DNA of 64,000 nucleotides from an uncultured Oscillospiraceae bacterium (GTDB taxonomy: Bacteria > Bacillota > Clostridia > Oscillospirales > Ruminococcaceae), in the NCBI GenBank assembly GCA_964622315.1, contig CAZUOY010000004.1:2064-66063 (forward strand). The letters run 5' to 3'. Positions 27,235 through 46,775 of this stretch are shown piece by piece. The notes under the pieces were generated by a model, which did not search any database, was not told the origin of the DNA, and saw nothing but the letters and a program-made list of their open reading frames with translations. How positions within the stretch are numbered: position 1 is the stretch's first letter; every line of letters starts with the position of its first letter. The position numbers and the translations under genes were made by a program.

Positions 27235-27414
27235 ATGAGAGCGACAGGTATAGTAAGAAGGATAGACGACCTCGGACGGGTGGTAATACCTAAGGAGATA
27301 CGGCGCACGATGCGGATTCGCGAGGGCGAGCCGCTTCTGACAACATTGACAAGGGAAGAAAGCTTCTGCATAGCCATCAATAATTTCTACCGCCGCTGCG
27401 TAAAGACGAGCTGA
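27235..27414 (+). pseudogene. spoVT: spoVT 5' segment (AbrB-type DNA-binding domain, codons 1-34) fused to 25 element-encoded codons
   Basis: Translation MRATGIVRRIDDLGRVVIPKEIRRTMRIREGEPL then LTTLTREESFCIAINNFYRRCVKTS-stop. Below the ORF-track length cutoff; found by reading the + strand under the spurious minus ORF 27187..27525. Confidence 0.85.
27323..27336 (+). repeat. attL core (14-bp direct repeat)
   Basis: AGGGCGAGCCGCTT, in the codons for EGEPL of spoVT. Confidence 0.8.
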
Positions 27415-27526
27415 AAAGCGCCTGAAATAGGGCATATACATAAAATTGCACAAGTTTACAAGAACCGTTAAGCCGTCTACCCATTCTCGTTCACAAATGT
27501 GAAAGATGGCTTGTTGTTTATTCAAT

Positions 27527-27555
27527 TTGACAATAAAATTTAATTTGAGTATACT
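27527..27555 (+). promoter_or_regulatory. Near-consensus sigma-A promoter driving the NTase/HTH pair
   Basis: TTGACA - 17 nt - TATACT. Confidence 0.6.
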
Positions 27556-27564
27556 AACGATAGA

Positions 27565-28116
27565 TTGATTAATACTATTAATGAAAAGAGTAAAATGATG
27601 CTTGGAAGAGATGAATTGATAGAAAGACTGAAACGATTTGATGAAGATATTTCATTAGCATATGAAAATATAGATGATTTCAATGTTTATATTGTTGGCG
27701 GAAGTGCGCTCATTCTAATGAAATATATCCTTCGCGGTACGCATGATATCGATATACTCAACAAGATGAACTCTGAAATAGTTGAGATTATGGAGAAGTA
27801 CGATATAAACAACAGAGTGTCGGCGTATATTGACAGCTTTGCGGATGACTACAAAAAGCGGGCGGTGGAAATACCAATAGAGGGGTGTAAGGTTAAGTAT
27901 TTTGCCCTTTCGCTTGAAGACCTCGTAATTTCAAAGCTATCCTCAAGCAGACGAACCGATGAAGAGGATATTACAAGCGACGGTGTAATTGAAAACATTG
28001 ATTGGGACACTTTAGATGAAATAGCAAAGACAACAAGAGAAGGTATGCTTAACGACAGAATTGTTGAAGAATTCAATGTGCGATATGAAAACTATGTAAG
28101 GAGGTTTAGAAAATGA
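27565..28116 (+). CDS. Nucleotidyltransferase-fold protein (DUF6036 / MNT-like)
   Basis: VYIVGGSALILMKY..RGTHDIDIL fits the G[GS]-x(9-13)-D-x-D pol-beta NTase motif. A later LEDLVISKLSSSRRTDEEDI block is present. The start may be the internal MML. Confidence 0.5.
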   Translation: MINTINEKSKMMLGRDELIERLKRFDEDISLAYENIDDFNVYIVGGSALILMKYILRGTHDIDILNKMNSEIVEIMEKYDINNRVSAYIDSFADDYKKRAVEIPIEGCKVKYFALSLEDLVISKLSSSRRTDEEDITSDGVIENIDWDTLDEIAKTTREGMLNDRIVEEFNVRYENYVRRFRK

Positions 28117-28640
28117 GACGGCTCACATTCAAGGGCTTTTTGCGACGCTATTTACAGGAGCTCTCTTTAGAGAATACCAGTTCGGTTCATAAGCTTCTTA
28201 TTGAAGCCGAATCGAACAACGCCCGTTTGTTTGAGCCGCTGCTGATATATATCGCTTTGTCGTTTGATAATGACAGACTGAATTCGATTCTTAAAAAAAG
28301 CGAGACACTGAACGATGAATATTCGCGCTACTTCAAAACAGTGTTAAGAGAAAATTTGGAGGAGTACCTCTCAAATTCAAACGATGTTCCGAAGGAGTAT
28401 ACGAAGATTTACAGAAGCTATCTCAGCGTAAGAAACCGCGTCGAGAGCGACAACGACACGAAAGCGAGGATGCGGACAAAAATACTGAAGCTGATAGAAG
28501 ATAAGGGTTACAGTGACTATAGAGTATACAAAAAGCTAAAGATAAACCCGGGTAATTACAGCGCCTTCTTTAAGCAGGGCAAGCTTGACCGGTTGAGCCT
28601 TGATAAGACGAGAGAGGTTTTAAGCTTCGTAAATCACTGA
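28113..28640 (+). CDS. Hypothetical partner protein with C-terminal HTH-like segment
   Basis: ATGA overlap with the NTase gene. C-terminal YRVYKKLKINPGNYSAFFKQGKLDRLSLDKTREVL looks XRE-like. Confidence 0.4.
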   Translation: MRRLTFKGFLRRYLQELSLENTSSVHKLLIEAESNNARLFEPLLIYIALSFDNDRLNSILKKSETLNDEYSRYFKTVLRENLEEYLSNSNDVPKEYTKIYRSYLSVRNRVESDNDTKARMRTKILKLIEDKGYSDYRVYKKLKINPGNYSAFFKQGKLDRLSLDKTREVLSFVNH

Positions 28641-28696
28641 GGAACCAAATTAGCGAACAGTCATAAAAAAATATAATGCGAACGACAGATACAGGT

Positions 28697-28734
28697 AAAA
28701 ATGGCAGGGCCAAAAGAGACCTTGCCATTTTCTT
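28697..28734. terminator. Bidirectional hairpin terminator between convergent genes
   Basis: AATGGCAGGG-ccaaaagaga-CCTTGCCATT flanked by A and T runs. Confidence 0.6.
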
Positions 28735-28868
28735 AATATCAAAATAATTAATGACCTCCAAAATCACCGTGCTGTTATTCTCGCGGTCAGCGAGCGCTAA
28801 CCCAAACAGCCAAGGGAGAAGTTTACTTCAGAATAACGGTATTTGTGGTTTCAACAATATCAGAGCTA

Positions 28869-29963
28869 TTAATGGTTATCTATGTGTTGGAGTCCTTCAC
28901 ACAAAATGTTCTGTGCGGCGTTTTGGTCGCGGTCGCATTCAAAACCGCAATTCGGGCAAAAGTATACCCTCTGAGAAAGAGAAAAAGTTGGAAGGATGTT
29001 TCCGCAAGCAGAGCATCGCTTTGTGCTCGGAAAGTACTGCGAACACTTAACAAGAATGCCGCCGGTGTCCTTTTGCGCATTGATTATTTTTTTCTCAAAA
29101 CTAACAGGGGCGTTATCGCGCATTTTAGCAGAGAGTGATGGGTTGGTTTCTTGCATTTTGTGAAAATTTAAAGTCTCTGTGCAAATAACATCGTGAGTTT
29201 CCGCGAGTCTCCGAGCTTCTTTGAATTGCCAATCTTTGCGCTGATTCTTAATATGTTGCTCAAGCTTATCGATTTTCCTGAAGGTTTCATTCCAGCGACG
29301 ACTACCTTTTTTCTTATGAGATAGAAGTTCATAAAGAGCATTAAGTCTTTCTCGCTCCGCCGCTCGGAAATGAGGACAGTCTCCCGACATGCCATTAGAG
29401 TCCACGTAAAGACCATCCTGTTTATAATCAAGCCCTATAGCAGTTTTCGTATTAATTGTTTTTTTCGGCGGGTCGTTATCGAAGCAGACAAGGACCGAAA
29501 TATAGTACTGCTTTAAAATCTTTCGATGACAAAGAGTAACCTTAACGATTTTTCCGTCTGTGGGGATAGGACGATGCAAATTGATTTCAACGTCGCCGAT
29601 TCCTTCAAGCTGTATATTTTCTTCGTCTATTAATGAGTACGTAAGGACATAGGATTTGAGTGTCCTCCATTGACCACGCTTATACAGGTAGTGTTTTCCA
29701 AACTTCTCCTCGCTTTTAATAGATTTGACGATATCTTTAATGATAAATTTTGCTGTGATTTCATCCACATCAAATCGGTCGTCAACGTTAAATTCCTCGA
29801 CCCATTGAATACGCTCTGGGAATTCTAATCCGCAATCCCGACAAGCGATAGCGAAGTCAATTATTGTATTGTATAAGAAATCCGCAGCTTTGAATCTCGC
29901 TGAGATAAGATTTTCCTGCTCCTTGGTGGGGAAAATTCTGTATTCAAAGTTTCTATAAAACAT
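28869..29963 (-). CDS. tnpB: TnpB (IS200/IS605-family OrfB, RuvC-like RNA-guided nuclease), no adjacent tnpA
   Basis: N-terminus FYRNFEYRIFPTKEQ. RuvC triad candidates IGLDYK, ICTETLNF and CDRDQNAAQNI. Zinc ribbon CSACG..CPNCG. ATG 29963 follows a GGAGGT RBS. Confidence 0.85.
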   Translation of the reverse strand: MFYRNFEYRIFPTKEQENLISARFKAADFLYNTIIDFAIACRDCGLEFPERIQWVEEFNVDDRFDVDEITAKFIIKDIVKSIKSEEKFGKHYLYKRGQWRTLKSYVLTYSLIDEENIQLEGIGDVEINLHRPIPTDGKIVKVTLCHRKILKQYYISVLVCFDNDPPKKTINTKTAIGLDYKQDGLYVDSNGMSGDCPHFRAAERERLNALYELLSHKKKGSRRWNETFRKIDKLEQHIKNQRKDWQFKEARRLAETHDVICTETLNFHKMQETNPSLSAKMRDNAPVSFEKKIINAQKDTGGILVKCSQYFPSTKRCSACGNILPTFSLSQRVYFCPNCGFECDRDQNAAQNILCEGLQHIDNH

Positions 29964-30075
29964 AATTACCTCCGCAAAAATGTTATACGAATAATCATCT
30001 TGAGAGAATAATAACAAAAATGTGACGTTGTGTCAATACATTTGTTCAAAATATGATTATATTCGTCACAATCGC

Positions 30076-30104
30076 TTGAGAATTGTAACCGTTTTTGTTA
30101 GAAT
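30076..30104 (+). promoter_or_regulatory. Sigma-A-type promoter for the XRE/hsdM unit
   Basis: TTGAGA - 17 nt - TAGAAT. Confidence 0.5.
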
Positions 30105-30135
30105 AGTAATATAAATCATTAAAGAGGAAAGAAAT

Positions 30136-30366
30136 ATGTCTGTTTGTAATAAAATTAGAGCTCTAATGAACTTAACAGGAAAAAAGACACAGGAGGTGGC
30201 AGATAGTCTTGGGATATCTCCACAAGGGCTTAGAAATAAGCTATCACGGGATAGCTTTTCGGCGGAAGACTTAATTAAAATTTCTGCATGTTTAGGCTGT
30301 GAGTTGTCGATAGCGATGGACCAAAATATAAAAATCACTTTGGATTTGACAGATTTGGAGAAGTAA
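30136..30366 (+). CDS. XRE-family helix-turn-helix protein
   Basis: KIRALMNLTGKKTQEVADSLGISPQGLRNKLSRD is a typical HTH_3 pattern; 76 aa. Confidence 0.75.
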   Translation: MSVCNKIRALMNLTGKKTQEVADSLGISPQGLRNKLSRDSFSAEDLIKISACLGCELSIAMDQNIKITLDLTDLEK

Positions 30367-30459
30367 AACGTTCAATACAATTAATTAAAACGTTGAATAG
30401 TTCAGCGGTTCATGAGTAATAGTACTAAACTGGAATTATTGCGCAAGGAAGGGCAGACG

Positions 30460-31830
30460 ATGAATAAGCAACAACTCGCAGCAAAAATATGGGAATCCGC
30501 AAATAAAATGCGTTCCAAGATTGAGGCAAATGAGTATAAAGACTATATTCTGGGTTTTATTTTTTATAAATTCCTGTCTGATAAAGAGGTTAAATATCTA
30601 AAGAGTATCGGATACACAGACAGTTCGATAAAACAAGTAGCAGAAGATATCCCGGAAGTAGTAGAGAATGTGCAAAATAACATAGGATACTTTATTGCAT
30701 ATGATAATCTTTTTTCAACATGGCTTGAGATAGGCGCAGATTTTAATGTATCAAATGTTCGTGATGCACTAGCAGCTTTTAATAGGCTTATCAGTTCATC
30801 GCATAAGAAGGTATTTGAAAAGATTTTCGATACTCTGCAAACTGGTCTGTCTAAACTTGGCGATACTTCTGGGACACAGACGAAGTCTATTAGTGACTTA
30901 ATACACCTAATCAAAGACATTCCAATGGATGGAAGACAAGACTACGATGTTCTTGGATTCATCTATGAATATCTAATCTCCAACTTTGCTGCCAATGCAG
31001 GAAAGAAAGCCGGAGAGTTCTACACTCCGCACGAAGTGTCGTTGCTGATGTCGGAAATAGTAGCTAATCACTTAAAGGAAAGGTCAGAAATTAAGATTTA
31101 TGACCCTACCAGCGGGTCGGGGTCATTGCTTATTAATATAGGCAAATGTATAGCAAAATACATGGGCGACGGTGACAGAATAAAGTATTATGCGCAAGAG
31201 CTTAAAGAAAACACATATAACTTGACACGCATGAATTTAATTATGCGTGGAATAATTCCTTCTAATGTTGTTACAAGAAACGGTGACACTCTGGAAGAAG
31301 ACTGGCCATATTTTGATGAAAGTGACCCTGTAGGTACTTATGACCCGTTATATGTTGATGCCGTTGTTTCAAATCCCCCCTATTCTCAAAACTGGAATCC
31401 CGGAGATAAGGAGAACGACCCAAGATATAAGCGTTATGGTGTCGCACCTAAGGGAAAAGCAGATTACGCATTTCTGTTGCATGACCTGTACCACATTAAA
31501 CCTGATGGAATTATGACCATTGTTCTTCCGCATGGAGTGTTGTTCCGCGGTGGCGAAGAAGCTGCCATTCGTAAGAATTTGATTGAGAACAACAATATAG
31601 ATACTATAATTGGTTTGCCTGCGAATATTTTCTTTGGTACCGGCATACCCACAATTATCATGGTATTAAGACAAATCCGTAGCAACAATGATGTGCTTAT
31701 AATTGATGCTTCAAAAGGATTTGAAAAGGTAGGAAAGAACAATAAGTTACGAGCTTCGGACATTAAAAGAGTTGTTGATGTTGTAACGAAGAGAGAAACT
31801 GTTGATAAGTACAATAACAAGCGATTTTAG
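30460..31830 (+). CDS. hsdM: Type I restriction-modification methyltransferase subunit HsdM, 3'-truncated and orphan (no hsdS/hsdR)
   Basis: HsdM_N block LAAKIWESANKMRS..EYKDYILGFIFYKFLSD, AdoMet motif IYDPTSGSGSLL, catalytic SNPPYS. Ends ..ETVDKYNNKRF where family members normally continue about 40-50 aa (..NDYNLNI.RYV). Confidence 0.75.
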   Translation: MNKQQLAAKIWESANKMRSKIEANEYKDYILGFIFYKFLSDKEVKYLKSIGYTDSSIKQVAEDIPEVVENVQNNIGYFIAYDNLFSTWLEIGADFNVSNVRDALAAFNRLISSSHKKVFEKIFDTLQTGLSKLGDTSGTQTKSISDLIHLIKDIPMDGRQDYDVLGFIYEYLISNFAANAGKKAGEFYTPHEVSLLMSEIVANHLKERSEIKIYDPTSGSGSLLINIGKCIAKYMGDGDRIKYYAQELKENTYNLTRMNLIMRGIIPSNVVTRNGDTLEEDWPYFDESDPVGTYDPLYVDAVVSNPPYSQNWNPGDKENDPRYKRYGVAPKGKADYAFLLHDLYHIKPDGIMTIVLPHGVLFRGGEEAAIRKNLIENNNIDTIIGLPANIFFGTGIPTIIMVLRQIRSNNDVLIIDASKGFEKVGKNNKLRASDIKRVVDVVTKRETVDKYNNKRF

Positions 31831-31926
31831 TTGTGAAACACACTATTGGGTGGATTTAATACAGTGGCGGTAAGAAATTAAGTCGCCAGTTCTAAATTAA
31901 TAAAGCGTTACGCAACTTCGTTTTAA

Positions 31927-32018
31927 CGTAACACTAAAAAATAAAACTGTAACACAAATGAGCTTTAACGTTACAGTAAAAAATTTTTGTGTTACATAAA
32001 ATGCTTTTTGCGTAACAC
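31927..32018. repeat. Phased array of five YGTAACAC-type motifs (both orientations) at ~21-bp spacing
   Basis: CGTAACAC 31927, TGTAACAC 31948, CGTTACAG (reverse, partial) 31969, GTGTTACA (reverse) 31989, CGTAACAC 32011. A GCGTTACGC palindrome lies at 31905. Confidence 0.7.
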
Positions 32019-32551
32019 TTATTTTCTAAATATGATTTTACGAGGGCGTTATTTAATAGCTTTTAGCAAAAACAATTTGACGCGTCCCCGAAAATCACCT
32101 AAACTTTAGTTGTTAGAAGAAAAGAAAATCAATTTTGATACGCAAATGCGGTGCCAGTAATGGTGCCGCTTTTCTTTTTCTTCTTTTTACATATATAAGT
32201 CCTTTAGGTTTCAATGAAAAAAAGATGATGGGAAAGTAGGTAAGAAAAAGCATACAGCATCGGCTCGGCAAACCGGTGCTGTGTAGCCTCTGTGGAAAAT
32301 ACAGGGGAGCCAGCTATTCGGTTATTCGCCTTGGTTTGTAGCGAATAAACGGATAGAGAATATGTTCCTTGGTTTTTGGGATGTAGAACCGGCTACGGAG
32401 TAGCGAAAAACGCCCAACCGGTGCGGTTTCCAGCCATAGTGCTGTTGCAACCGTCCATACTTAACAGGCAATTCAATAACGAAAAATACGACCCGAGGGC
32501 GATAAAATCGCCGATTCGGTTTCTTCAGAACACCTAAAGGAGGAAAGTAGC

Positions 32552-33551
32552 ATGAAGAAAGCAAAAACGAACGAAGAATATCTGAGGGAGGCTAAGGATT
32601 CCCGCTTCCGCGAACTCAACAAAATTGGTACATCGAAAAAGCAGGCACGCGATGAGTACAACGAATGGCGGAAGGAGGAGGTGAGAAAAAACGGTAAGCC
32701 GATACCGACAGATTATGCGCCATCTCCGTACATCCACGGTCTTGGTACGCTAAAGCAGTACAATGCAATTTCAGAACATTATATTACTTACATAGTAGAG
32801 AATCATCCCGAAGCTTACAAGCTGTCGTATTGCTTTAAGCATGGATTTGCACACGAATATATTCAGACCCTTATTGATAAAGGTCAGAGCGCTTGGAGTA
32901 TAGCCCGTGCCCGCGCGGCTCTTGCGAAGCTGCATGGAAAAACAGGTCCCGAAATCCATAATGACATCCCTCGCCGCGAAGCTGAAGACATCACTAAAGG
33001 CAGAATGTCAGAACTTGAATATGCTGCCGCATTGAATGAGTATGGCGACATGGTTGCATTTGCACGCTGTGTCGGAGTTAGAAGTGCCACATTCGTCACG
33101 CTGACGCCGGATTGTTTTAAAACAGACAACGAAGGGAACCTTTTTCTCCACCTTGACGGTAAGCTTAATAATACCAAGGGGGGGGAAAACCTTCGATGTA
33201 GAAATTATTCCGACAAATCAGAAGTACGTCAGAGACTATATTTCGAAGCATAACCACGATGAACTGCTTTTTCCTGAAGTGCCGAGCCACTTAAATCTGC
33301 ATGGAGTTCGTGCATTCTTCGCAAAGGACTTCTACAATTTCTATGCGCGCGATATTGATGAAATAAAAAACAATAGGACAAAATATAAAGGAAGTATGAG
33401 AAGTGCAATCTACACTCGGAGAATTGAAGGCTTGAAGCCGAGTGAGCAGCCTTCTTATGATTTTGAGGCACTGTTGAGGATGTCAAGGTCGCTTGGTCAC
33501 GAGAGGGTGTGCACCTCAATTGTGCATTATCTCTACAACGTTGACGATTAG
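32552..33551 (+). pseudogene. Tyrosine recombinase/integrase interrupted by a +1 frameshift in a G8 homopolymer (33178-33185)
   Basis: ORFs 32552..33253 and 33153..33551 overlap. Removing one G gives ..LHLDGKLNNTKGGKTFDVEIIP... Catalytic signature CVGVRSAT (Arg), LHGVRAFF (H-x-x-R), LGHER..IVHYL (His, Tyr). Confidence 0.75.
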
Positions 33552-33586
33552 CTTAATATGAAGCATCTATATTGATGATTCAATTA

Positions 33587-33595
33587 TGCTATAAT
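33587..33595 (+). promoter_or_regulatory. Extended -10 promoter element (TGcTATAAT) upstream of the orphan two-gene cassette
   Basis: TGCTATAAT read directly, followed by the inverted repeat ATATCACT-caataca-GTGATAT. Confidence 0.4.
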
Positions 33596-33889
33596 ATGTA
33601 TATCACTCAATACAGTGATATGAAAGGTTACGAATTTTGTAGATGGGACAATGTCAACGAAGTCTTGTTTGATGGGACACACATTGAAATAGAACAACAC
33701 GAGTGTCTTGATTGAAGAGGCAGAAGCTTTCATGAGTAAATGTTAAGTACAAACTCAATACTGCTTGGATGCAAGTTATGTGGGTATAGTTACAAACGAC
33801 TAAATCACAAAAACATTAAGGTAGGGAATGTAGATAGGATGCGTTCTCAACATTAACCATTTGAGATTATCCCTCACTAAGGAGAAATT

Positions 33890-34870
33890 ATGAATAATAG
33901 TAAGGACGACACATTAAACTCTTTTCTTGATAGGTCTGAAAAAAAGATAAAAACGTTTAAATATAGTGTAACTGATAAACAATGGAATGAACTTGTAGGG
34001 TTTTATAATTACCTTACTTTTTGGGTTAATGGTTATCAACAGTTGCTTTATTATCTCCGAGAAAGACAGAATCTTGTTGAATTACATCGCACTGGTATAC
34101 CTATCACCTTATATATACATGATAAATACCACGAGGCAACAGCAGAGGTAATAAGTCAGTATCGTACTTTTTTTGAACATAGTAAGCAATTGCTAAATGC
34201 TTTTGTAGTTTTGCTCGGTCATATAATTGCAGACCATGAATTCAACAGAGTAAAAACCAGTAGTTTCGGAAAATGTATAAATTCATTTAGTAATGTTTCA
34301 GAATTCAATAATAAGTGTTTGAATAAACTTAAGGCATTATTTACTAAAGTTGGAAAGTTGATTGACAATACTATCTGTGAATATCGTGATAAACATGTTG
34401 AGCACGCAAAACTGTTAGGAGTAGGCGTAGCTCGAACATTCGGAGACTCGATGGTGTTAATTCACGATAAAGATGAAACACCTCCAATGTTATATCCCAT
34501 AGAAAAGGTAAAAGGTGTTTCGCGAATGTCAATATTCATTGATTACATAGGGATTCAGAGTACAAATGGAGGTACAGACTATATCTATCATATTAAGTCA
34601 AACAAAAATAAAGGAGATAGCGTTAGAACTGGTGAATGCATTGGACCCGCTTATGTAGATAGTTCTGGTATACACTTTGAAGAATATGGAAAGCACTATC
34701 ATGAATTTTCGTCAGAGAGTCGCAAGGTGCTCTATCCAGTTGCTTCACCAATACATAAAGGAACCACTTCACCGAAATCCGATGATTCTTTTGATATAAT
34801 GTGTTGTTTTATAGAAGAATGTTTGGGTATACTTTCTGAGTATGTCAAATCCTCCTCTGACAAAGAATAG
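33890..34870 (+). CDS. Hypothetical protein A of orphan cassette (helical N half, beta-rich C half)
   Basis: Strong RBS AAGGAGAAATT before the ATG; AT-rich codon usage. The only motif-like element is YRDKHVEH (R-x5-H) at aa 165-172. Confidence 0.6.
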   Translation: MNNSKDDTLNSFLDRSEKKIKTFKYSVTDKQWNELVGFYNYLTFWVNGYQQLLYYLRERQNLVELHRTGIPITLYIHDKYHEATAEVISQYRTFFEHSKQLLNAFVVLLGHIIADHEFNRVKTSSFGKCINSFSNVSEFNNKCLNKLKALFTKVGKLIDNTICEYRDKHVEHAKLLGVGVARTFGDSMVLIHDKDETPPMLYPIEKVKGVSRMSIFIDYIGIQSTNGGTDYIYHIKSNKNKGDSVRTGECIGPAYVDSSGIHFEEYGKHYHEFSSESRKVLYPVASPIHKGTTSPKSDDSFDIMCCFIEECLGILSEYVKSSSDKE

Positions 34871-38343: not shown

Positions 38344-38347
38344 TAGT

Positions 38348-38703: not shown

Positions 38704-40509
38704 ATGGGATATCAAGCAAAATTGCAGAAAGTACATATTAAAAACTTTAGGTCAATAGTTGACGAAACGATTTATTTTGATAATTTTAATATTTATGTGG
38801 GACTCAATGATTGTGGAAAATCAAATGTTCTGAAAGCATTAAATCTTTTTTTTAATGGGCAAACTGAAAATGGTCATTTGCTTGATTTCCCCCGAGATTA
38901 TGCTCAACATGGTAAGACGGGAAAAGGAAAAGCTAAAGAAATTGTAATAGAAATCAGCCTAATTATACCAGATAATTTTAAAGAGGCCGGAATAAAATCT
39001 TGGAAAAAAGTTTGGCGCGATAATGATTTGTTTAGTGATAACTTATCTGAAATTGTTGATGAATATTCAAAATGTACAACTTTACTTAAAAGAATCAAGT
39101 TTGAGTATATTCCTGCCGTAAAAAGTGAATCTTTCTTTCAAGAACTCTTACTTGAATTATACAATTCAATGACAATTTCCGCAGATAGTGCACTCCATAC
39201 AGCAAACTTGGAGTATTCTAAAGCTCTAACTGAGCTTACTCAAAATTTAAGTGAAAATGTCAAAAATAAAGTAGGTTTAGACTCAAGCGTAATGATGCCT
39301 GACAAGCTTTCAGTTCTATTTAGAAATTTAAAAATTAATACAAAAGATGAAAACATTAAGGATATTGATTTAAATCATCGTGGTGATGGGATAAAAGCTC
39401 GCCATATACCATCAATATTATTAACAATTGCCCATAATATTAAGAACTCAAGAAAAAGGAATTCTGTTGATTATTCATTTATATGGGGCTACGAAGAACC
39501 AGAAAATGGAGTTGAGTTTTTTGCTTGCTCGCAATTAGCTGATGAACTGTACTCATATTCAAAAGAGTTACAATTAATAATAACAACCCATTCACCAGCC
39601 ATATATTCAAAAAGCAATATGCAAGACTGCAAATGCTATTATGTGTATAAAACAGAATGTGGTGACTCAAAGTACGATACAAATTATAGTTTTATTGAGT
39701 TAAATAAAAATATAGGCTTAATGCCATTAATTGCTCCTTACGTTCAAGATTTTCAAAAAGTGATAGAAGAGAGGAGCAGTGCAATAAGTTCTTTAGAAGA
39801 AGAGAACAAGCGCATAAATCAGATGACAAATCGTGTAATTCTATATACAGAGGGAAAAACGGATGTTAAATATCTCAAAAAGGCTTTTGAAACATTTAAA
39901 GAATATGGAGATGTCTCGCATAGAATTGAGTATTATGATATAGAAAATGCACGGTTTACAGGGGACGGTGAACTCAAGAAAATTTTTGATTACTTACAAA
40001 AAGGTAATGATTCCAATATTAAGATTATGATGTTCGATAGGGATGTTGAAGACAAAATTATAGAGTACGAATTTGAAAAGGGACAAAACAAAGTGTATCG
40101 CTTTAATATTCCTATTCCACCCCACCGTAAATCTAATGACAAGATTTCAATAGAACATTTTATTGAAGATGATAATTTGTCAGTGGTTGATACGATGGGA
40201 CGACGCTTGTTCATGGCAAAAGATTTCGATTATAAGGGAATCTCATTAGATGGAAAATACACATTTAACCATGCTAAGAATCCGTTAGACGCTAAATACA
40301 ATCCTCTGGAAATAATTAATGGTTCTGCAGATAAAAAAGTCTTTAGTGTTAATCCTAACGATAATAAAAACTATGCAATGTCCAAGGATGACTTTGTTAA
40401 TCATATAATTAATGAGGATGAGGGCTTCTGCTTTGATTTATCTGTATACAAACTAATCTTAGATTTAATATGCAGAATTATTGCAGATGCAGATACGAGT
40501 AAAACATAA
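38704..40509 (+). CDS. OLD-family-like ABC ATPase fused to a Toprim-like C-terminal domain (class-1 OLD or fused PARIS AriA-AriB-like)
   Basis: IKNFRSI..VGLNDCGKSNVLKAL (Walker A), YEEPENGV (Walker B), IITTHSP (H-loop). C-terminal VILYTEGKTDVKYLK and IMMFDRDVED (Toprim-type E ... DxD). 601 aa, AT-rich. Confidence 0.65.
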   Translation: MGYQAKLQKVHIKNFRSIVDETIYFDNFNIYVGLNDCGKSNVLKALNLFFNGQTENGHLLDFPRDYAQHGKTGKGKAKEIVIEISLIIPDNFKEAGIKSWKKVWRDNDLFSDNLSEIVDEYSKCTTLLKRIKFEYIPAVKSESFFQELLLELYNSMTISADSALHTANLEYSKALTELTQNLSENVKNKVGLDSSVMMPDKLSVLFRNLKINTKDENIKDIDLNHRGDGIKARHIPSILLTIAHNIKNSRKRNSVDYSFIWGYEEPENGVEFFACSQLADELYSYSKELQLIITTHSPAIYSKSNMQDCKCYYVYKTECGDSKYDTNYSFIELNKNIGLMPLIAPYVQDFQKVIEERSSAISSLEEENKRINQMTNRVILYTEGKTDVKYLKKAFETFKEYGDVSHRIEYYDIENARFTGDGELKKIFDYLQKGNDSNIKIMMFDRDVEDKIIEYEFEKGQNKVYRFNIPIPPHRKSNDKISIEHFIEDDNLSVVDTMGRRLFMAKDFDYKGISLDGKYTFNHAKNPLDAKYNPLEIINGSADKKVFSVNPNDNKNYAMSKDDFVNHIINEDEGFCFDLSVYKLILDLICRIIADADTSKT

Positions 40510-40869
40510 TTTTACATTAATGAAATTTATTTATATTAATTAAAACAATTTTTGTATACATGAGATACAAATACATAAATAACCCAGAAGGGAAAGCAAC
40601 TTTGCGGTGCGATATTTTACAGTATTTATTTTTTCATTCAAGAGCGTGATTAATGATAAATAGGATGTAATAATCAATTTGGTGATTGGTAGGATGTTGT
40701 TTATAAGTGAATTCAACCCCAAACTATTGCGCTTGGGAACACATTGTGTTAGCCGACTATATAGAATAAGGTTTTTACAGTTATCGAATATATTGTGTGA
40801 TGAGTTGTAAGCATTTAGGCTAAAATGTTATAATAATGAAAAGTAAAACCCTCATGCAGGGAAAAATGA

Positions 40870-41124
40870 ACCGAACCCTTACCTCAACTATCAAACATTC
40901 ATGTATCAAATGATATGCGCGGGCAAGGAATCGGTAAGGAATTATTCAACATGGCAAAGGCATGGGCGAAAAATAGGCAGGCGGATAAACTATATATTTC
41001 TGCCCATTCCTCAGTCGAGAGTCAGGCTTTCTATAAAGCTATGGGGTGCGAAGAGGCGGCGGAATATAATTAACAGCTGGCGGAAAAAGAGCCCTGCGAC
41101 TGTCAAATGGAGTGCGTGTTATAA
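40870..41124 (+). pseudogene. GNAT acetyltransferase remnant: 5'-truncated with an in-frame TAA at 41071
   Basis: Frame shifted from ORF 40901..41167. It reads ..LSNIHVSNDMRGQGIGKELFNMAKAWAKNRQADKLYISAHSSVESQAFYKAMGCEEAAEYN-stop-QLAEKEPCDCQMECVL. The R/Q-x-x-G-x-G AcCoA motif is present and the N-terminal half is absent. Confidence 0.7.
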
Positions 41125-41495
41125 GTGCGATTTGATGTGTAATCAGGTGCATTATCGGAAAATTTGACACCCGAAGAAAATCTATATATACTTTGCTTGA
41201 AACAGGGTTATCGTCGTTAATACCGCTCGGGAGATGTCCCCTTGGGGTCGATTGCGACAGATACCCTGTTTTTATTTTATTAAGATGAAATAAAAAGGGT
41301 TAAAGCAAATTCGTCAGAAACAAAAAAACAAACCATCATAGTTACAGGCGCTCAGGCTGCAATTGCCGTCAGCAGTAACAAATTTTGATTCTAAAGCAAG
41401 AATTCAAAATTAGTCAATTACGAATTGCCGAATCGTACTTGACTAAATATTTATCCTATGATATATTGTATGCGTAAGAAAACGGAGGTGACGGT

Positions 41496-42884
41496 ATGTT
41501 TATCGGAAGAAACAGCGAGCTTGATACGCTAAATAAGCTTTACAGTTCCGAAAGGTTCGAGTTTGCGGTTATCTACGGCCGCCGCCGCGTCGGGAAAACC
41601 GCGCTTATTAATGAGTTTATCAGCGACAAAAGGGCGATATACTTTATGGGCGTTGAGAGCAACGAAAAACAGAACCTCGAAAATTTCAGTAAAAGCGTGA
41701 TTGAATTCAGTTCGGGGATAGCCGCCGAGACTTCGTTTTTATCGTTTCAGCACGCTATTGAGTATGTTTTTGAGCTTGCGAAAAAGGAACGGATTATACT
41801 CGCGATTGACGAGTATCCGTATGTTGCGCGGGCGTCAAAAAGTCTCGCTTCTACGCTCCAGTTACTGATTGACAAAAACAAAGATACATCGAAGCTGATG
41901 CTTATACTCTGCGGCTCTTCTATGTCATATATGGAGGACAACGTTCTCGCTTATAAGGCACCGCTGTACGGAAGAAAAACCGCGCAGATAAAGCTCCTTC
42001 CCTTTAGCTTTTGGGAAACCTGCAGATATTTTACCGGCTTTTCCGCTGAGGACAAGGCGCTGATATACGGTATTGTCGGAGGAACGCCGCAGTATCTTCT
42101 TCAGATGAACGATAGCCTGAGCGTAGCGGAGAATATAAAGAACACTTTTTTGAATCCGACCTCGTCGCTGTATGAGGAGTCCGAAAACCTTCTGAAGCAA
42201 GAGGTTCGCGAGCCGTCGCTTTACAACGCGATTATCACGGCGATAGCTAACGGAGCTACTCGAATGTCTGAAATATCAGGCAAAGTGGGCGAAGACACCA
42301 ACGTATGCTCGACCTATCTCAAGAATCTCACAACTCTCGGAATAGTTAAAAAGGAAACACCTTACGGCGAAAAGGTTTCTCACAAATCGATATACTCTAT
42401 TGAAGACAATATGTTTAAGTTTTGGTATCGCTTTGTGCCGGAGAACAATTCGTTAATAGCGCGCGGAGCGGCGGAGCTTGCATACAAACGCATTGAGCCG
42501 CACCTTAACGAATATATGGGAAAGATATTTGAGGATATCTGCGCTCAATACCTATGGCGTCGGCTTCTTTCGGGGAGCTGTCCCGTTCGGTTTTCTTCTC
42601 TCGGCAGATGGTGGGGAAACGACCCGAACGAGAAAAAGCAGACAGAGATAGATATTATGGGCGAGCAGGACAAGAGTACTGCGCTTTTTGCGGAGTGTAA
42701 ATGGACGAACGAAAAGGTAGACGAAGAGGTCCTCGGCACGATTATAAAGCGAAGTAAACTTTTCGGCTATACGAAGACGCACCTGTTTTTATTTGCTAAG
42801 AGTGGGTTTACAAAAAGCTGTGAGGTCAAAGCCGCCCAGCTCGGAAATGTCACGCTTGTTAATTACAAAGATATGATTGAATGA
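41496..42884 (+). CDS. ATP-binding protein (archaeal-type ATPase domain plus DUF234)
   Basis: FIGRNSEL..L.......FAVIYGRRRVGKTALI Walker A, ILAIDEYPY Walker B, C-terminal EIDIMGE..ALFAECKW DUF234-like block. Confidence 0.8.
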   Translation: MFIGRNSELDTLNKLYSSERFEFAVIYGRRRVGKTALINEFISDKRAIYFMGVESNEKQNLENFSKSVIEFSSGIAAETSFLSFQHAIEYVFELAKKERIILAIDEYPYVARASKSLASTLQLLIDKNKDTSKLMLILCGSSMSYMEDNVLAYKAPLYGRKTAQIKLLPFSFWETCRYFTGFSAEDKALIYGIVGGTPQYLLQMNDSLSVAENIKNTFLNPTSSLYEESENLLKQEVREPSLYNAIITAIANGATRMSEISGKVGEDTNVCSTYLKNLTTLGIVKKETPYGEKVSHKSIYSIEDNMFKFWYRFVPENNSLIARGAAELAYKRIEPHLNEYMGKIFEDICAQYLWRRLLSGSCPVRFSSLGRWWGNDPNEKKQTEIDIMGEQDKSTALFAECKWTNEKVDEEVLGTIIKRSKLFGYTKTHLFLFAKSGFTKSCEVKAAQLGNVTLVNYKDMIE

Positions 42885-43006
42885 AAAAGGCAGACTGTTA
42901 TTCAGTCTGCTTTTTTGTTATTTTGTGGTTACTGTCCGTTTTTTGGGACGGCTCGGATGATATAATACGGGTGTAAGAGAGAAGAAGGATTTTTAGAGGA
43001 GGATGT

Positions 43007-43222
43007 ATGGGCGATATATTTAATCCGATGAAATGTCAGGTGGAGTTACTGAGAATAATACAGAACTCGAAACTATCTCTGAATTCCGAACATGAGATTT
43101 TAATGACTCTAAAAAAATTCCGAAAAGAACAAAGAGAAAATATGGCGCAAAGTCTTATCAATTTAATACAGTCAAGTCGAACCGAAGAAGCAATTATTGA
43201 GAAGCTGAAAGCGCTCGATTAA
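43007..43222 (+). CDS. Small hypothetical protein (71 aa)
   Basis: Strong RBS AGAGGAGGATGT before the ATG; helical. Confidence 0.45.
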   Translation: MGDIFNPMKCQVELLRIIQNSKLSLNSEHEILMTLKKFRKEQRENMAQSLINLIQSSRTEEAIIEKLKALD

Positions 43223-43253
43223 ACTACACATAAAATTAATAGGAGGGTTTACC

Positions 43254-43433
43254 ATGTTTTTAGACGGTGACGGAAAACTGTTTGATTTCGACGAAAACGG
43301 AAGGCTTAATTCTTTTGAGCAGAGCGAAATGGAGCTCTTTGAGTTCGGCGACGGCAGTATGCACGAGCCGAACGGCGTAGACATCTATGATGAAGACGAT
43401 TTTGACGACGACGAGGATGACGACGATTTTTAG
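43254..43433 (+). CDS. Small highly acidic protein (59 aa) with DxDxDG-like start
   Basis: RBS AGGAGGG. MFLDGDGKLFDFDENGRLNSFEQSEMELFEFGDGSMHEPNGVDIYDEDDFDDDEDDDDF. Below the ORF-track cutoff. Confidence 0.45.
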   Translation: MFLDGDGKLFDFDENGRLNSFEQSEMELFEFGDGSMHEPNGVDIYDEDDFDDDEDDDDF

Positions 43434-43664
43434 GAGGCAGCGATAAAGACTATTGTTTAGTGTTTAGTTTTTCGCTTGCCGTATCCCCGAAAATGCTATA
43501 ATATATACATATAAAATAAATAAAAAACAAAACCGTTACGCAAATACTGCGTAGCGGTTATTTTTTTGCTCTTTTTTCGGAGCACATATTACTTTTTAGA
43601 AAGGACGGGTGTAAACAAATAGCAAGTGAATACATACAAGCAATAATGGCAATAATTGTATTGA

Positions 43665-43883
43665 ATGGAGGCGCATATGAACATTCAGATTTCCGAAAAT
43701 GACAAGATAGTAGCCTTCTGGCTTACAAATAAGGAAAAGGCAGACGATAAATTCCGTGAAACGCTAAAGCCGCAATATTCCGAATGGAAAAAGAAAGGCT
43801 ACAGGGTTGCGGTTTTTATTTCCGGAAACGAGAACCTTTTAAAGAATACGGAAAGCTTACTGTTAAACAACAAAAATATTTAG
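43665..43883 (+). CDS. Small hypothetical protein (72 aa)
   Basis: ORF followed by terminator GGCAACCGCCCCTGC-gatatat-GCAGGGCGGTTGC plus TTTT (43903-43943). Confidence 0.4.
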   Translation: MEAHMNIQISENDKIVAFWLTNKEKADDKFRETLKPQYSEWKKKGYRVAVFISGNENLLKNTESLLLNNKNI

Positions 43884-44050
43884 TGAGAAAATCAATATTA
43901 TAACGGCAACCGCCCCTGCGATATATGCAGGGCGGTTGCTTTTATATAGAATGTCGTTCGGCGCATATTTGAAATAGGTTTGTTTTTAATATATACTGAC
44001 TTTAGATTGATACACAAATCTGATTGAGATTAGCAAAAAGGAGAAAAAGA

Positions 44051-44371
44051 ATGATTATTACAACAACACCCTCTGTGGAGGGAAAAACAATAGTAGATTA
44101 CAGGGGCATAGTTTTCGGCGAAGTAGTTTCGGGGGTAGATTTCGTCAAGGATTTTGCCGCCTCGCTAAACAATATTTTCGGCGGACGTTCCGGAAGTTAT
44201 GAGGAAGAGCTGATTCAGGCAAGACAGAACGCCATAGGCGAGATGGAACAGCGCGCGGTTTCTGTCGGTGCAAACGCGATAGTCGGTGTCGATATCGACT
44301 ACGAGGTGCTCGGCTCGAATAACGGAATGTTAATGGTAACCGCAAGCGGTACGGCCGTTGTTGTTCAGTAA
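44051..44371 (+). CDS. YbjQ-family (UPF0145) protein
   Basis: [57 protein letters not shown] before ATG 44051. Confidence 0.8.
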
Positions 44372-44521
44372 AAGCATATTAATAAATCGGCGCTTCGTTT
44401 TACAGAAACGGAGCGCCTTTATTGGTGAGAGTTCGTCTCTTTTCCCATTAACACAACAATGCCGTAGACGCAGTTAAAAAACAATCACACATAAGTTTGG
44501 ATGGCCGGTTGTAAGCGTTAC

Positions 44522-44557
44522 TTGAAAAGAAGAAAGCTGTATGATACAATATTGTAT
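44522..44557 (+). promoter_or_regulatory. Promoter of the serine recombinase gene with an overlapping 14-bp palindrome
   Basis: TTGAAA - 17 nt - TACAAT. The perfect palindrome ATACAATATTGTAT (44544-44557) covers the -10. Confidence 0.5.
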
Positions 44558-44603
44558 ACAAACGAAGCTAAACAACAAACAACATTGAAAGGAGGGCGCT
44601 GAA

Positions 44604-46775
44604 ATGGCGAAAGCTACAGAGAACATCGCGGCATATATGCGTATTTCGGTAGATACCGAAGCGGATAGAGATAACACTTCTATTGAAAACCAACGAGCTA
44701 TAATTAAAGCCTATATAAAGAATAGGTTTTCCGATGTACAGACGACATATTATGAAGACCGCGACCGCAGCGGATACACCTTCAAACAGCGAGAAGGATA
44801 TCAAAGCATGCGGCCGCTATTACTAAGCGGAAAACACAACATCTTAATAGTAAAAGACCTTTCACGATTTTCCCGCAGAAACAGCCGCGGACTTGTTGAG
44901 CTGGAGGATTTGCGTGACGCGGGCGTCAGGATTATTTCGATTGATGACTGTATCGACTATCCGACCCGTGATGAGTGGCAGCAAATTCAGTTTAAATTTT
45001 TGATGAATGAAATGCCGGTAACTGATGCGTCTCGCAAGGTGAAAAGCGTTATTAACCGCCGACAGAACGACGGCAAATGGATTTGCAGCGTTCCCTTCGG
45101 TTATGTCATAACTAATACAAAAAACATGACGGTATCCGTTGATGAAAAATCTGCCGAGATTGTCAGATTAGTTTTTAATAAGTACCTTGAAGGTTGGGGC
45201 TATAAAAAAATAGCGAATTTTTTAACTGATAAGAATATGCCGACTCCGCGTGCTGTTGAAAAAGAATTCAGAGAAGCCGACGGAACTGTTACAAACATAA
45301 AACCCAAGGATACATGGTCGATTGCAACGGTTCAGGGAATATTGAAAAACGATTTCTATATCGGAACCCTCCGCCAGAGAAAGTACACTCGAAAGAATAT
45401 CAACGGTAAGGATATGAAGCTTGACGAGGAAGAAAACATAGTCTTTGAAAACCATCACGAGGCTATTATAGATTATCGGACCTTTTCAAAAGTTCAGCAA
45501 CAGCTGGTTAGCCGTTCGAAAAACAACTATCGAGGTGTTTCGAAGTATCCGACGGTATATTCGGGATTCCTTTTCTGCGGCGACTGCGGAAGTCCGATGT
45601 TCTCCATGAGCCGTCCCGATTTGCCTGCGGCGTATACATGCGGAAGCTATCATAGACGCGGCAAAAAGGGATGCTCATCACATCACATCAGAGTCGACGC
45701 AATGGACAGCATCCTTAAAATGTATGTGAAAAAAGTATTAGAGAACTCAAAGGAAATGATAGCCCAGCTTGAAAAGTCCATTGCTCAAGAGCCTGATAAG
45801 CTTAAATCAAGCACCTCGACTGTTGAAGCGTTGGAAAAGGACCTTGAGAAAGCTAAGGATGTTTTGAAGAATACCCTGAAGCAGAAGGTTAAAGAAATTA
45901 CCGCGCACCCCGACATGGAGGAAGTGCTTTCGGAAACCTTTGATTCAATGATTGAAGAAGCTGACAAAAAAATCAAGGGAATCGAGAATCAAATTACTCT
46001 CGTGGCCGATAAGCGCAATGTGATTATTCACACCAACAGAATTGCGAAGACAGCGCTTGAGATTTTCAACGACATTATTAATAAGCCTGCGTTAGACAAA
46101 AACGATTTAGAGGTTATAATCAATCGTATGGTTGTTTACGAGGACCATGTTGATATTGAGCTAAAGTCCGATATTGATATGCTGATAAAGACCGGCTCTC
46201 TCACAGAGGAAAGGGAAATGGCAACGGCAACGGTAAATTTTAAGTGGGACACCGACAGTATCTTAAGAGCCAAAGCAGTCCTAAAACAGCGAAATAAGAG
46301 GGACGAGGCTATCGGTGTCAATGTTATCAGTAAGGGCGAGCCGCTTGAGATTTTCACAAGCGGCGACGGAGACGTTATCTTCAGAAAATACTCGACCATG
46401 AACGAGCTTGCAAACTGCGCTGATAAGTATGCCGAGGTGCTGTTTTCGTCAATAAAGCAGCCCGTCATCGTCTGCGACAGGGACGCGGTATGCGCGGCGT
46501 ATCCCTCAAAGAAGAAGGAGCTTGTCGGCAAGCGGATAAGCGAGGAGCTTGAGGAAAAGATACGTGGGCGCGATTCCGCGGTGATGGGCGAGGGTATTTT
46601 CTGCCTTAGCAACTATAAGGAAAAGGCGAGCGTGGTCGTACCCGTGCGAGCGGCTGGAAGCGCTATAGGATGTATCGCGGTCTTACAGTCCGATTCGTCA
46701 AAAAAGGTGGAAGACAAGGACATCTCTATGCTCGAAACCGCGTCTAAGCTGCTCGGTGCGCAGACGGAGAGCTGA
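44604..46775 (+). CDS. Large serine recombinase; the ORF continues without a stop across attR into the spoVT 3' segment (chimeric 723-aa ORF)
   Basis: Resolvase N domain (AAYMRISVDTE..NQ), recombinase domain, zinc ribbon CGDCGSPM..CGSYHRRGKKGC and coiled-coil region. The last ~142 codons are SpoVT C-terminal sequence. Confidence 0.88.
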   Translation: MAKATENIAAYMRISVDTEADRDNTSIENQRAIIKAYIKNRFSDVQTTYYEDRDRSGYTFKQREGYQSMRPLLLSGKHNILIVKDLSRFSRRNSRGLVELEDLRDAGVRIISIDDCIDYPTRDEWQQIQFKFLMNEMPVTDASRKVKSVINRRQNDGKWICSVPFGYVITNTKNMTVSVDEKSAEIVRLVFNKYLEGWGYKKIANFLTDKNMPTPRAVEKEFREADGTVTNIKPKDTWSIATVQGILKNDFYIGTLRQRKYTRKNINGKDMKLDEEENIVFENHHEAIIDYRTFSKVQQQLVSRSKNNYRGVSKYPTVYSGFLFCGDCGSPMFSMSRPDLPAAYTCGSYHRRGKKGCSSHHIRVDAMDSILKMYVKKVLENSKEMIAQLEKSIAQEPDKLKSSTSTVEALEKDLEKAKDVLKNTLKQKVKEITAHPDMEEVLSETFDSMIEEADKKIKGIENQITLVADKRNVIIHTNRIAKTALEIFNDIINKPALDKNDLEVIINRMVVYEDHVDIELKSDIDMLIKTGSLTEEREMATATVNFKWDTDSILRAKAVLKQRNKRDEAIGVNVISKGEPLEIFTSGDGDVIFRKYSTMNELANCADKYAEVLFSSIKQPVIVCDRDAVCAAYPSKKKELVGKRISEELEEKIRGRDSAVMGEGIFCLSNYKEKASVVVPVRAAGSAIGCIAVLQSDSSKKVEDKDISMLETASKLLGAQTES
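46333..46346 (+). repeat. attR core (14-bp direct repeat)
   Basis: AGGGCGAGCCGCTT, identical to 27323-27336 and in the same codon phase. Confidence 0.8.
46347..46775 (+). pseudogene. spoVT: spoVT 3' segment (linker plus GAF-like C-terminal domain, codons 35-176)
   Basis: EIFTSGDGDVIFRKYS..KYAEVLF..VIVCDRD..SKKKELVGKRIS..GSAIGCIAVLQS..ETASKLLGAQTES parallels the remembered B. subtilis SpoVT sequence. Confidence 0.85.

Follow-up and report, generated by a model that had tools for sequence, protein, structure and literature searches.

In a 64,000-nucleotide (nt) stretch of contig CAZUOY010000004.1 from an uncultured Oscillospiraceae bacterium (contig positions 2,064 to 66,063, hereafter the window), the sporulation gene spoVT, which encodes a forespore regulator required for spores to mature, is split in frame by a 19,010-bp insert that encodes its own large serine recombinase (LSR). 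The insert is a non-phage integrative island moved by this LSR. The structural description, i.e., a split gene, an inserted element and a pair of attachment (att) sites, is very likely right. The best reading of its role, which is held with modest confidence, is that the element would be excised specifically in the forespore, triggered by a small element-encoded protein that serves as recombination directionality factor (RDF), and that spoVT would thereby be rebuilt.

The 5′ part of spoVT has the translated sequence MRATGIVRRIDDLGRVVIPKEIRRTMRIREGEPL, followed by 25 more codons and a stop at 27412-27414. The translation of the 3′ part starts with EIFTSGDGDV and ends in GAQTES. The window has exactly two copies of the 14-mer AGGGCGAGCCGCTT, starting at 27323 and at 46333, on the same strand, in the same codon phase and 19,010 bp apart. 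A few pairs of repeated 14-mers are expected by chance in 64 kb, so bare repetition is not rare; the placement at both breakpoints of the open reading frame (ORF), in phase, is not by chance. Joining the two halves in silico gives 176 uninterrupted codons, a full-length gene. The joined protein aligns with positions 1-180 of the 180 in the TIGR02851 spore_V_T model, at a score of 184.9 bits that lies below the equivalog cut-off of 235.9 bits. It scores above the Pfam gathering thresholds for MazE_antitoxin/AbrB (residues 7-49) and SpoVT_C (residues 54-175). The database relatives listed are 175-210 amino acids (aa) long, all with SpoVT_C and nearly all with the AbrB-type domain, and several are named SpoVT in their source. 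A sequence-only reading of the window had claimed a spoVT gene split by an insertion with a direct repeat, whose precise removal restores the ORF, and these claims are borne out. Its expectation of an end-to-end model match holds for the length of the alignment, with the score short of the cut-off as given above.

The two halves are contiguous in two related loci, which represent empty insertion sites, as had also been anticipated. Locus L002 has an unbroken spoVT of 176 aa with 91% identity to the joined product (in the BLASTP-aligned stretch, 86% of the query). The 5′ end of this gene is identical to that of the window, and its junction, CGCGAGGGCGAGCCGCTTGAGAT, agrees with the reconstruction. 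Locus L001 has an unbroken spoVT of 177 aa with 86% identity, and 3′ of it are galK-like, alpha-amylase and melibiase genes, as in the right flank of the window. The predicted attB junction is of the type ...GATTCGCGAGGGCGAGCCGCTTGAGAT.... Thus the intact genes in L001 and L002 and the full-length join stand against the two outcomes that the sequence-only reading had named as refuting it, a joined product that does not align along SpoVT and a lack of relatives with contiguous halves. The window branch of the split gene has accumulated 15 synonymous and 4 non-synonymous codon changes, and the intact gene of L002 has 18 and 3. This is the same purifying pattern in both, and a recent insertion would look alike.

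The recombinase ORF (44604-46775) encodes 723 aa, of which the first 581 are the LSR; the ORF then continues through attR into the 3′ part of spoVT. All domain features of the class are detected with Pfam, i.e., a resolvase catalytic domain with the R-x-S motif, a recombinase domain and a zinc ribbon (Zn_ribbon_recom), and residues R13 and S15 are invariant in 21 homologues. The nearest NCBIfam models are CcrB and XisF, both far under their cut-offs. Just outside the core, the element ends form inverted repeats with 15-bp arms, CTGACAACATTGACA on the left and TGTCAATGTTATCAG on the right. The reconstructed attP, with the predicted junction ...GTCAATGTTAT...GGCGA...ACAACATTGAC..., forms a 46-bp imperfect palindrome around the GA of GGC-GA-GCC, the form expected for an LSR. 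The family site is always the same, the GA in GGC-GA-GCC at codons E-G-D/E-P-L, and the GA of attL and attR agree in five of the six elements that have both junctions. In the L062 element, attL reads GGCGCCCC (L062:528-710) and attR reads GGCGACCC (near position 11700), with a mismatch at the predicted crossover dinucleotide. Its SpoVT stub shows IRMGAPS where others show IREGDPL. L062 is probably a locked, decaying insertion.

The 25 codons after the spoVT stub are the natural C-terminus of the recombinase. In all five loci with a left junction, a SpoVT stub of 33-34 residues is followed by a related tail of 24-27 residues, e.g., HTSLTPYEKFCYAMLQFADRCIGK and QTTLKSELDYLLVLLRLADRLYIK; a comparable tail, xT[TS]LT....FCxA..., is present 3′ of the stub in L083, L030, L079, L022 and L062. 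A degenerate attP pattern, built from the window element and the five others with both junctions, was used as a search pattern. Two contigs in 241 million metagenome records, L091 and L092, have the P and P′ arms contiguous; the fetched loci and the viral contigs of IMG/VR gave no match. The L091 recombinase ORF crosses attP and ends in HTTLTPIDRFCLAIHSVVERAKARH, the conserved tail; that of L092 stops directly after QITLT, without most of the tail. Because the L091 ORF crosses attP into the tail, with L092 stopping just after, attP is placed within the recombinase gene. It follows from this position inside the 3′ end of the gene that integration joins the LSR ORF to the SpoVT C-domain without a shift of frame, which gives the 723-aa product. 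The outcome is a reciprocal swap of C-termini, whereby SpoVT gets the ~25-residue tail and the LSR gets SpoVT_C; with its own tail the LSR would have 606 aa. Thus the 25 codons and the stop at 27414 described earlier are present, but they are not unrelated to their surroundings, as had been thought; they encode a conserved recombinase tail.

The chimeric products may themselves be functional. In such a case LSR::SpoVT_C, or a product initiated inside it, would replace SpoVT, or the swap of C-termini would set directionality without a separate RDF. In-frame read-through is universal among the family members listed, the tail is conserved both at attL and in the attP-form L091, and there is a precedent for a C-terminus changed by an attP within a gene in mycobacteriophage integration-dependent immunity (PMC9262239). 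A sigma70-like promoter (11/12) lies within the recombinase 3′ region of the window at 46093-46120, followed by an in-frame ATG with a good Shine-Dalgarno (SD) sequence at 46218, a start that could yield a 184-aa protein ending in SpoVT_C. However, this methionine is not conserved in homologues, the fusion displays no AbrB-type Pfam domain, and the L092 recombinase is without most of the tail. Moreover, with attP in the ORF and the shared core in phase, the in-frame fusion is automatic, and thus its ubiquity is not independent evidence of function. Functional chimeras are therefore considered improbable, although the swap (SpoVT_C when integrated, the 25-residue tail when free) possibly contributes to directionality. 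A replacement SpoVT N-domain supplied by the element, which would make integration neutral, was also tried as a candidate and rejected. The hhalign comparison of the LSR C-extension, the element stretch before the core, with the DNA-binding SpoVT/AbrB half aligned 7 core residues only, at a probability of 13.7%, and the missing AbrB-type match and the unconserved methionine contradict the candidate as well.

The fused architecture is widespread. In a search with the 723-aa ORF, 120 of the 120 matches listed (728-763 aa, 54-57% identity) combine Resolvase, Recombinase, Zn_ribbon and SpoVT_C domains; NCBI names for some are "recombinase family protein" and "stage V sporulation T C-terminal domain-containing protein". 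Relatives are found in at least 589 species-representative genomes (one per GTDB species). The best 80 of these loci all extend into SpoVT_C and are mostly from metagenome-assembled genomes of Acutalibacteraceae, Oscillospiraceae and Ruminococcus, from gut and rumen. Isolates among the carriers are Ruminococcus flavefaciens 007c and ATCC 19208, Ruminococcus sp. JE7B6, Eubacterium sp. MSJ-21 and Ruminococcaceae bacterium P7. The recombinase ORF was traced in 78 loci and is unbroken to its own stop or to the contig end in every one, with at least 135 SpoVT_C codons after the junction in 55.

An alignment of 21 homologues shows the recombinase conserved, with several sequences near-identical, up to ...GVNVIxxGDPLEI, after which the SpoVT_C parts diverge. 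Between L026 and L030 the C-terminal 300 aa of the LSR are 100% identical and the SpoVT_C parts 47% identical. Many pairs are alike in this, with identical recombinases in hosts whose SpoVT_C parts are 47-70% identical. Thus the elements pass from species to species, with insertion at one and the same codon every time. The left junction is within the fetched flank in five loci, and those elements are 8.9-11.6 kb long. In an all-versus-all comparison of the six elements, only the stub with its tail, the recombinase and the small protein are common, and the window cargo has nothing in common with the cargo of the other five.

Eight IMG/VR contigs carry the recombinase, and a tblastn search with the LSR found no close relative in isolate phages or plasmids. 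The best two "Bacteriophage sp." virome scaffolds have 49-56% identity to the LSR; one of them, MT836658.1, is again the integrated fused form, and in MT839487.1 the recombinase ORF was not located. Among ten cargo proteins sampled in four other members, the PHROG matches were of replication type and none was structural. TnpV is found near attL and a RepA_N protein near the recombination module in other members (L022:2945-3322, L030:1181-1585, L022:8982-9335, L030:8979-9335), and these genes connect some of the members with the Tn4451-like mobilisable elements of clostridia. In L092:1-12455 the small gene runs in the opposite direction, and a second serine recombinase and Rep-like and FtsK-like proteins are also there; this element may be nested in, or travelling on, another mobile element.

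From these data the insert could be taken for an ordinary integrative island with no developmental role, for which the conserved REGDPLEI-coding stretch of spoVT is simply a reliable landing site. Carriers would then be asporogenous, poor sporulators or sporadic losers of the element, excision would serve horizontal transfer only, and the small gene would have another function, its sigmaF likeness being coincidental or due to another sigma factor. The dominance of horizontal transfer seen in the recombinase comparisons, unrelated cargo of a defence or accessory kind and the TnpV and RepA_N modules, as usual in mobilisable elements of clostridia, all fit this explanation, as do the locked and decaying appearance of L062, the rarity of attP forms in assemblies and the general view of some cultured carriers as non-sporulating. 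Nevertheless it is judged rather unlikely. Against it stand the unbroken recombinase ORF in all traced loci, with its long SpoVT_C extension in many, and the purifying pattern of the split gene in the window, although a recent insertion would give the same. A spoVT knockout in Clostridioides difficile abolishes heat-resistant spores, from which it follows that a non-excising insertion should be costly to spore-transmitted gut anaerobes, and yet relatives are carried by hundreds of species representatives. A further difficulty for a plain island is the small gene and its promoter.

The small gene encodes 68 aa in the window and is a candidate for the RDF. With a hidden Markov model of the protein, it was found in the window and in 73 of the loci, 95 having been fetched. 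It usually precedes the LSR by 100-160 bp and has the same orientation; in the window an inserted ybjQ gene parts it from the recombinase. An exhaustive search of 1.84 billion proteins gave 424 representatives at E<=1e-3; a word-indexed homologue search gave only 2 proteins. The protein belongs to no Pfam, NCBIfam or PADLOC family. Its AlphaFold2 (AF2) model has a confident alpha/beta fold (pLDDT, the predicted local distance difference test score, 91.6), for which Foldseek found no match in the Protein Data Bank at E<=0.001.

The consensus for sigmaF is GYATA at -35 and GGnnAnAHTR at -10 (PMC11599450). In C. difficile the sigmaF and sigmaG consensus sequences are like those of B. subtilis, and a G that precedes the -10 element is conserved in sigmaF promoters (PMC3789822). 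The scan covered 54 non-redundant regions, each the 120 nt before a copy of the small gene, with 1,019 ORF upstream regions from the same loci as controls. Sites for sigmaF that match in at least 11 of 12 positions are present in 39% of the small-gene regions, and in at least 10 of 12 in 87%. The corresponding values for the controls are 1.4% and 16% (Fisher p = 1e-20), and shuffled sequences give 1.7% at 11/12 or better. In most cases 16-37 nt separate the end of the -10 element from the start codon, and the derived logo is tGTATAa-N14/15-GG(g/a)AA(a/t)AATA; the upstream regions are otherwise unalignable across the 54. The sigmaG model is enriched too, as the overlap of the two models would lead one to expect. 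No comparable enrichment upstream of the small gene was seen with the sigmaA, E, K, B, H and D models. A plain island leaves unexplained why a terminator-insulated gene has this sigmaF-type promoter at a fixed distance in 54 non-redundant regions.

The LSR has a promoter of its own, of sigmaA type. Of 61 non-redundant family members, 39 have TGnTAhAAT at this position, and the transcription units of the small gene and the LSR are separated by terminators. The LSR upstream region also contains the att-arm motif AYAACATTG, in either orientation, in 33 of the 61, compared with ~0.02 occurrences per 160 nt in the loci overall. The motif sits in or just downstream of the LSR promoter (L011-L090), often overlapping the TGTTACAATGTTGTT -10 region. 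This location suggests that the LSR binds and autoregulates its own promoter.

The intervening elements of sporulation genes described so far all have mother-cell targets (PMC4191935, PMC6957869), the spore genome being seen as the germline in which they are kept (PMC4191935, PMC5595907, PMC6957869). The features shared with this class are a sporulation ORF that is interrupted and restorable, an att core with inverted arms, and an own recombinase. The mother-cell target, which in this class goes with excision confined to that cell, is not shared. The C. difficile spoVT gene is under sigmaF and sigmaG control, and heat-resistant spores are not formed by a spoVT mutant (PMC3789822). The spoVT promoter of the window matches both the sigmaG and the sigmaF model at 11/12, and in five carriers (the window, L030, L079, L022 and L062) sites of the type GTATA-N17-xAxAATA are located 30-60 nt upstream of spoVT. 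Thus, with spoVT a forespore gene, the mother-cell logic of the skin element is not directly transferable, and excision in the mother cell would leave the function unrestored where it is needed. The control signals of the element itself point to the forespore.

The sequence-only reading had regarded the insert as skin-type. This can be kept for the kind of recombination module, an LSR with a small adjacent gene that has a sporulation-type promoter, but not for the mother-cell logic that it implies, since spoVT is a sigmaF/sigmaG gene and the small-gene promoter is of sigmaF type and not of sigmaE or sigmaK type. A switch with excision in the mother cell only, the spore keeping the interrupted copy, shares with skin, SPbeta and gin an architecture of in-frame split sporulation gene, LSR, att repeats and small accessory gene, and all described cases are of that kind. 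However, spoVT acts in the forespore (PMC3789822), the sigmaG/F-like spoVT promoters of the carriers would make a mother-cell copy useless, and sigmaF/G motifs rather than sigmaE or sigmaK motifs are enriched upstream of the small gene. Such a switch is very improbable.

For excision in the forespore the following course is proposed. After asymmetric division, sigmaF would turn on the small protein in the forespore only. The small protein would serve as RDF, so that the LSR, made from its housekeeping promoter, could recombine attL with attR. The forespore chromosome would regain an intact spoVT early enough for the gene to be expressed under its own sigmaF/sigmaG control. The 19-kb circle would be trapped in the non-dividing forespore and, with the small protein gone, would re-integrate after germination. 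We infer the RDF role, the compartment-specific expression, the excision during sporulation and the re-integration from sequence. The whole of it would be a germline rearrangement by a sigmaF-driven RDF and a constitutive LSR, with a spore that holds an intact spoVT and a non-replicating circle, in a reversible cycle run once per spore generation; this complete cycle is put forward tentatively, as somewhat less probable than not.

Several points weigh against excision in the forespore. The small protein is without characterised kin in sequence or fold, and thus its designation as RDF derives from position, conservation and promoter. The promoter consensus is that of B. subtilis and C. difficile and not one mapped in carriers, and sigmaF and sigmaG are inseparable by it. 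The rebuilt 176-aa SpoVT has no exact entry in a collection of 15 billion proteins (the 59-aa stub also has no exact entry in the protein collection), and attP junctions are as rare as the two metagenome contigs described above. Excision in the forespore risks loss of the element from the germline unless the predicted re-integration follows. The L062 mismatch and the decay of its stub imply that at least some insertions are fixed. Because LSR divergence is far below host divergence, horizontal transfer alone could sustain the abundance of the family. Finally, some cultured carriers, e.g., Ruminococcus flavefaciens, are classically called non-sporulating, and a disrupted spoVT might be tolerated there.

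The coordinates of the features are given in Table 1. The GC content is 31-46% inside the insert and 47-53% in the flanks. No phage structural, packaging or lysis genes were found among the ORFs of the window element with Pfam, NCBIfam or PADLOC, and the element has no TnpV and no relaxase/Mob genes, whereas Tn4451-like elements combine a TnpX-type LSR with TnpV and a Mob/oriT module. No TnpA was noticed beside the TnpB ORF (28869-30017). The HsdM sequence covers positions 1-453 of the 857 in the best PADLOC MTase_I model, i.e., just its first half, with no hsdR or hsdS nearby. The ORFs 32552-33253 and 33153-33551 overlap, have no family and are perhaps one frameshifted gene. Together, 30412-33551 looks like a decayed restriction-modification cassette.

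Table 1. Features of the interrupted spoVT locus and its element (window positions)
Feature	Position	Strand	Remarks
spoVT promoter, forespore type (sigmaG/sigmaF-like)	27177..27205	+	GTATA-N17-GACAATA; -10 ends 29 nt before ATG; consensus match only
spoVT 5′ fragment	27235..27336	+	Codons 1-34; first half of AbrB-type swapped-hairpin DNA-binding domain; Pfam MazE_antitoxin residues 7-34 in the 59-aa stub
attL	27306..27351	+	Host B arm, core and element P′ arm CTGACAACATTGACA; predicted crossover GA 27328-27329
Direct repeat, left copy	27323..27336	+	14 bp, AGGGCGAGCCGCTT
Element-encoded 25-codon tail	27337..27414	+	LTTLTREESFCIAINNFYRRCVKTS and stop; fused to the spoVT stub; putative recombinase C-terminus in the excised form
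Variable cargo region	27415..43530	.	Pfam/NCBIfam/PADLOC
DUF6036 nucleotidyltransferase	27565-28116
Helix-turn-helix (HTH)-like protein	28113-28640
TnpB/IS605-family ORF	28869-30017	-	Cas12f-like TNB domain
Type I methyltransferase HsdM	30412-31830
Unassigned ORFs	32552-36095
SRAP peptidase	36127-36714	-
Y-family DNA polymerase	36826-38091
OLD/GajA-like ATPase	38704-40509
ATPase_2+DUF234 protein	41496-42884		Matches PADLOC PDC-S27 (candidate defence)
Terminator-like hairpin upstream of small-gene promoter	43531..43559	+
Small-gene promoter, sigmaF type	43628..43657	+	GAATA-N15-GGCAATAATT; 10/12 versus GYATA / GGnnAnAHTR
Small gene, candidate RDF	43677..43883	+	68 aa; SD GGAGG 43667-43671
Terminator-like hairpin after small gene	43903..43945	+	Stem 43914-43932 plus outer pairs read from sequence
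YbjQ-family gene between small gene and recombinase	44024..44371	+	Window-specific; terminator after it at 44389-44417
LSR promoter, sigmaA type, extended -10	44522..44550	+	TTGAAA-N17-(TG)ATACAAT; 10/12, TG present
Att-arm motif copy	44579..44587	+	ACAACATTG; directly before LSR SD; candidate autoregulatory site
LSR	44604..46346	+	581 codons to core; Resolvase 8-159, Recombinase 182-301, Zn_ribbon 319-372; no stop, ORF runs to 46775
attR	46316..46361	+	Element P arm TGTCAATGTTATCAG, core and host B′ arm; predicted crossover GA 46338-46339
Direct repeat, right copy	46333..46346	+	14 bp, AGGGCGAGCCGCTT
spoVT 3′ fragment	46347..46775	+	Codons 35-176 and stop; SpoVT_C domain; C-terminus of the 723-aa recombinase ORF, in frame
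spoVT terminator-like hairpin	46820..46854	+

Outside the element, no other clear sporulation gene was found among 20 flanking ORFs (10 searched against Pfam, 10 against NCBIfam). A 6S RNA (77.2 bits, 8229-8418, + strand) and an M-box magnesium riboswitch (98.9 bits, 9921-10078, + strand) are in the housekeeping region left of spoVT, and an ORF of 1,633 aa (15359-20260, + strand) lies upstream of ABC-transporter genes. A BlaI-type repressor and a BlaR1-M56/M23 sensor-peptidase form a pair at 46982-48798, between spoVT and the galK-like gene. The pair is absent at the same place in L001 and L002, which indicates a second insertion or deletion beside the insertion site.

In the sequence-only reading spoVT was not known as a target, and no paper was found that names spoVT as an integration target or that reports forespore-specific excision. 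Literature searches for spoVT with "serine recombinase" yield only an unrelated archaeal plasmid paper, the one sporulation-related paper among those listed for spoVT with "integrase" describes no split spoVT, and none was found that links spoVT to an intervening element. Neither the recombination chemistry nor intervening elements in sporulation genes as such are novel. The target spoVT, the compartment that it implies, attP within the recombinase gene with the reciprocal C-terminal swap, the conserved small-protein family and the prevalence in gut Oscillospirales are new.

If excision takes place in the forespore, it would be a programmed rearrangement of the inherited chromosome, one that needs either reversible excision or loss followed by re-acquisition. 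The accepted rationale, that rearranging the genome of a dying mother cell costs the lineage nothing, would then be challenged. It would also be a common trait of gut anaerobe sporulation, with the family present in hundreds of gut Oscillospirales species. Because current annotations of the LSR ORFs read simply "recombinase" or "SpoVT C-terminal domain" protein, censuses of sporulation genes will miscall spoVT as absent or fused, and this affects the prediction of which gut anaerobes sporulate and transmit. The compact LSR, its defined attB and attP and the candidate 68-aa RDF are a possible genome-engineering tool for Oscillospirales, which are hard to manipulate. Cultured carriers exist, so direct tests are feasible.

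Among known systems, Tn4451/Tn4453 share with the present family an LSR (TnpX there) that drives excision of a circle, which is predicted here, and TnpV and RepA_N are found in other family members; the window element differs in having neither TnpV nor Mob genes. TnpX elements are not known to be confined to a single sporulation gene. The Listeria comK prophage undergoes "active lysogeny", in which it is reversibly excised from a host regulatory gene and is not lost. It differs in recombinase context and in trigger, and has no link to sporulation. In the integration-dependent immunity of cluster G/N/P mycobacteriophages, attP likewise lies within an element gene and integration replaces its C-terminus (PMC9262239). 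However, there the affected gene encodes the repressor, a tyrosine recombinase acts on a tRNA gene as target and a degradation tag is removed, whereas here the serine recombinase itself gains a 142-residue host domain, with a putative functional consequence.

The skin element of B. subtilis (SpoIVCA, sigK) and SPbeta (SprA/SprB, spsM) have in common with the window element short core repeats, inverted arms, an LSR and a sporulation gene as target. In both, precise excision by the LSR rebuilds the gene, and a small RDF controls directionality (PMC4191935, PMC5499854). They are, however, (defective) prophages that are excised in the mother cell only and kept by the spore, whereas the window element has no phage genes and its promoter logic would act in the germline compartment. 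The gin element in gerE of Bacillus cereus ATCC 10987 is likewise a non-phage island, with restriction-modification-type cargo and serine recombinases, inside a small sporulation regulator gene (PMC5595907); gerE is, in contrast, a mother-cell gene, gin has three recombinases and GirX, and no read-through fusion is described there.

In the skinCd element of C. difficile, which splits sigK, a constitutive LSR (CD1231) and a 72-aa RDF (CD1234) under a sporulation sigma factor have been shown experimentally (PMC5025042). The likeness extends to a sporulation gene split in frame, to the absence of any requirement for phage genes, to an LSR with a sigmaA-type promoter and to an unannotated protein of ~70 aa under a sporulation sigma factor (PMC5025042), the promoter here being assigned by consensus. 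The small protein is likened to CD1234 by description and not by sequence, and attP here is within the recombinase ORF, unlike in skinCd. Further, skinCd has a mother-cell target and an RDF that depends on sigmaE and SpoIIID, whereas the element described here has a forespore target and a small gene with a sigmaF-type promoter.

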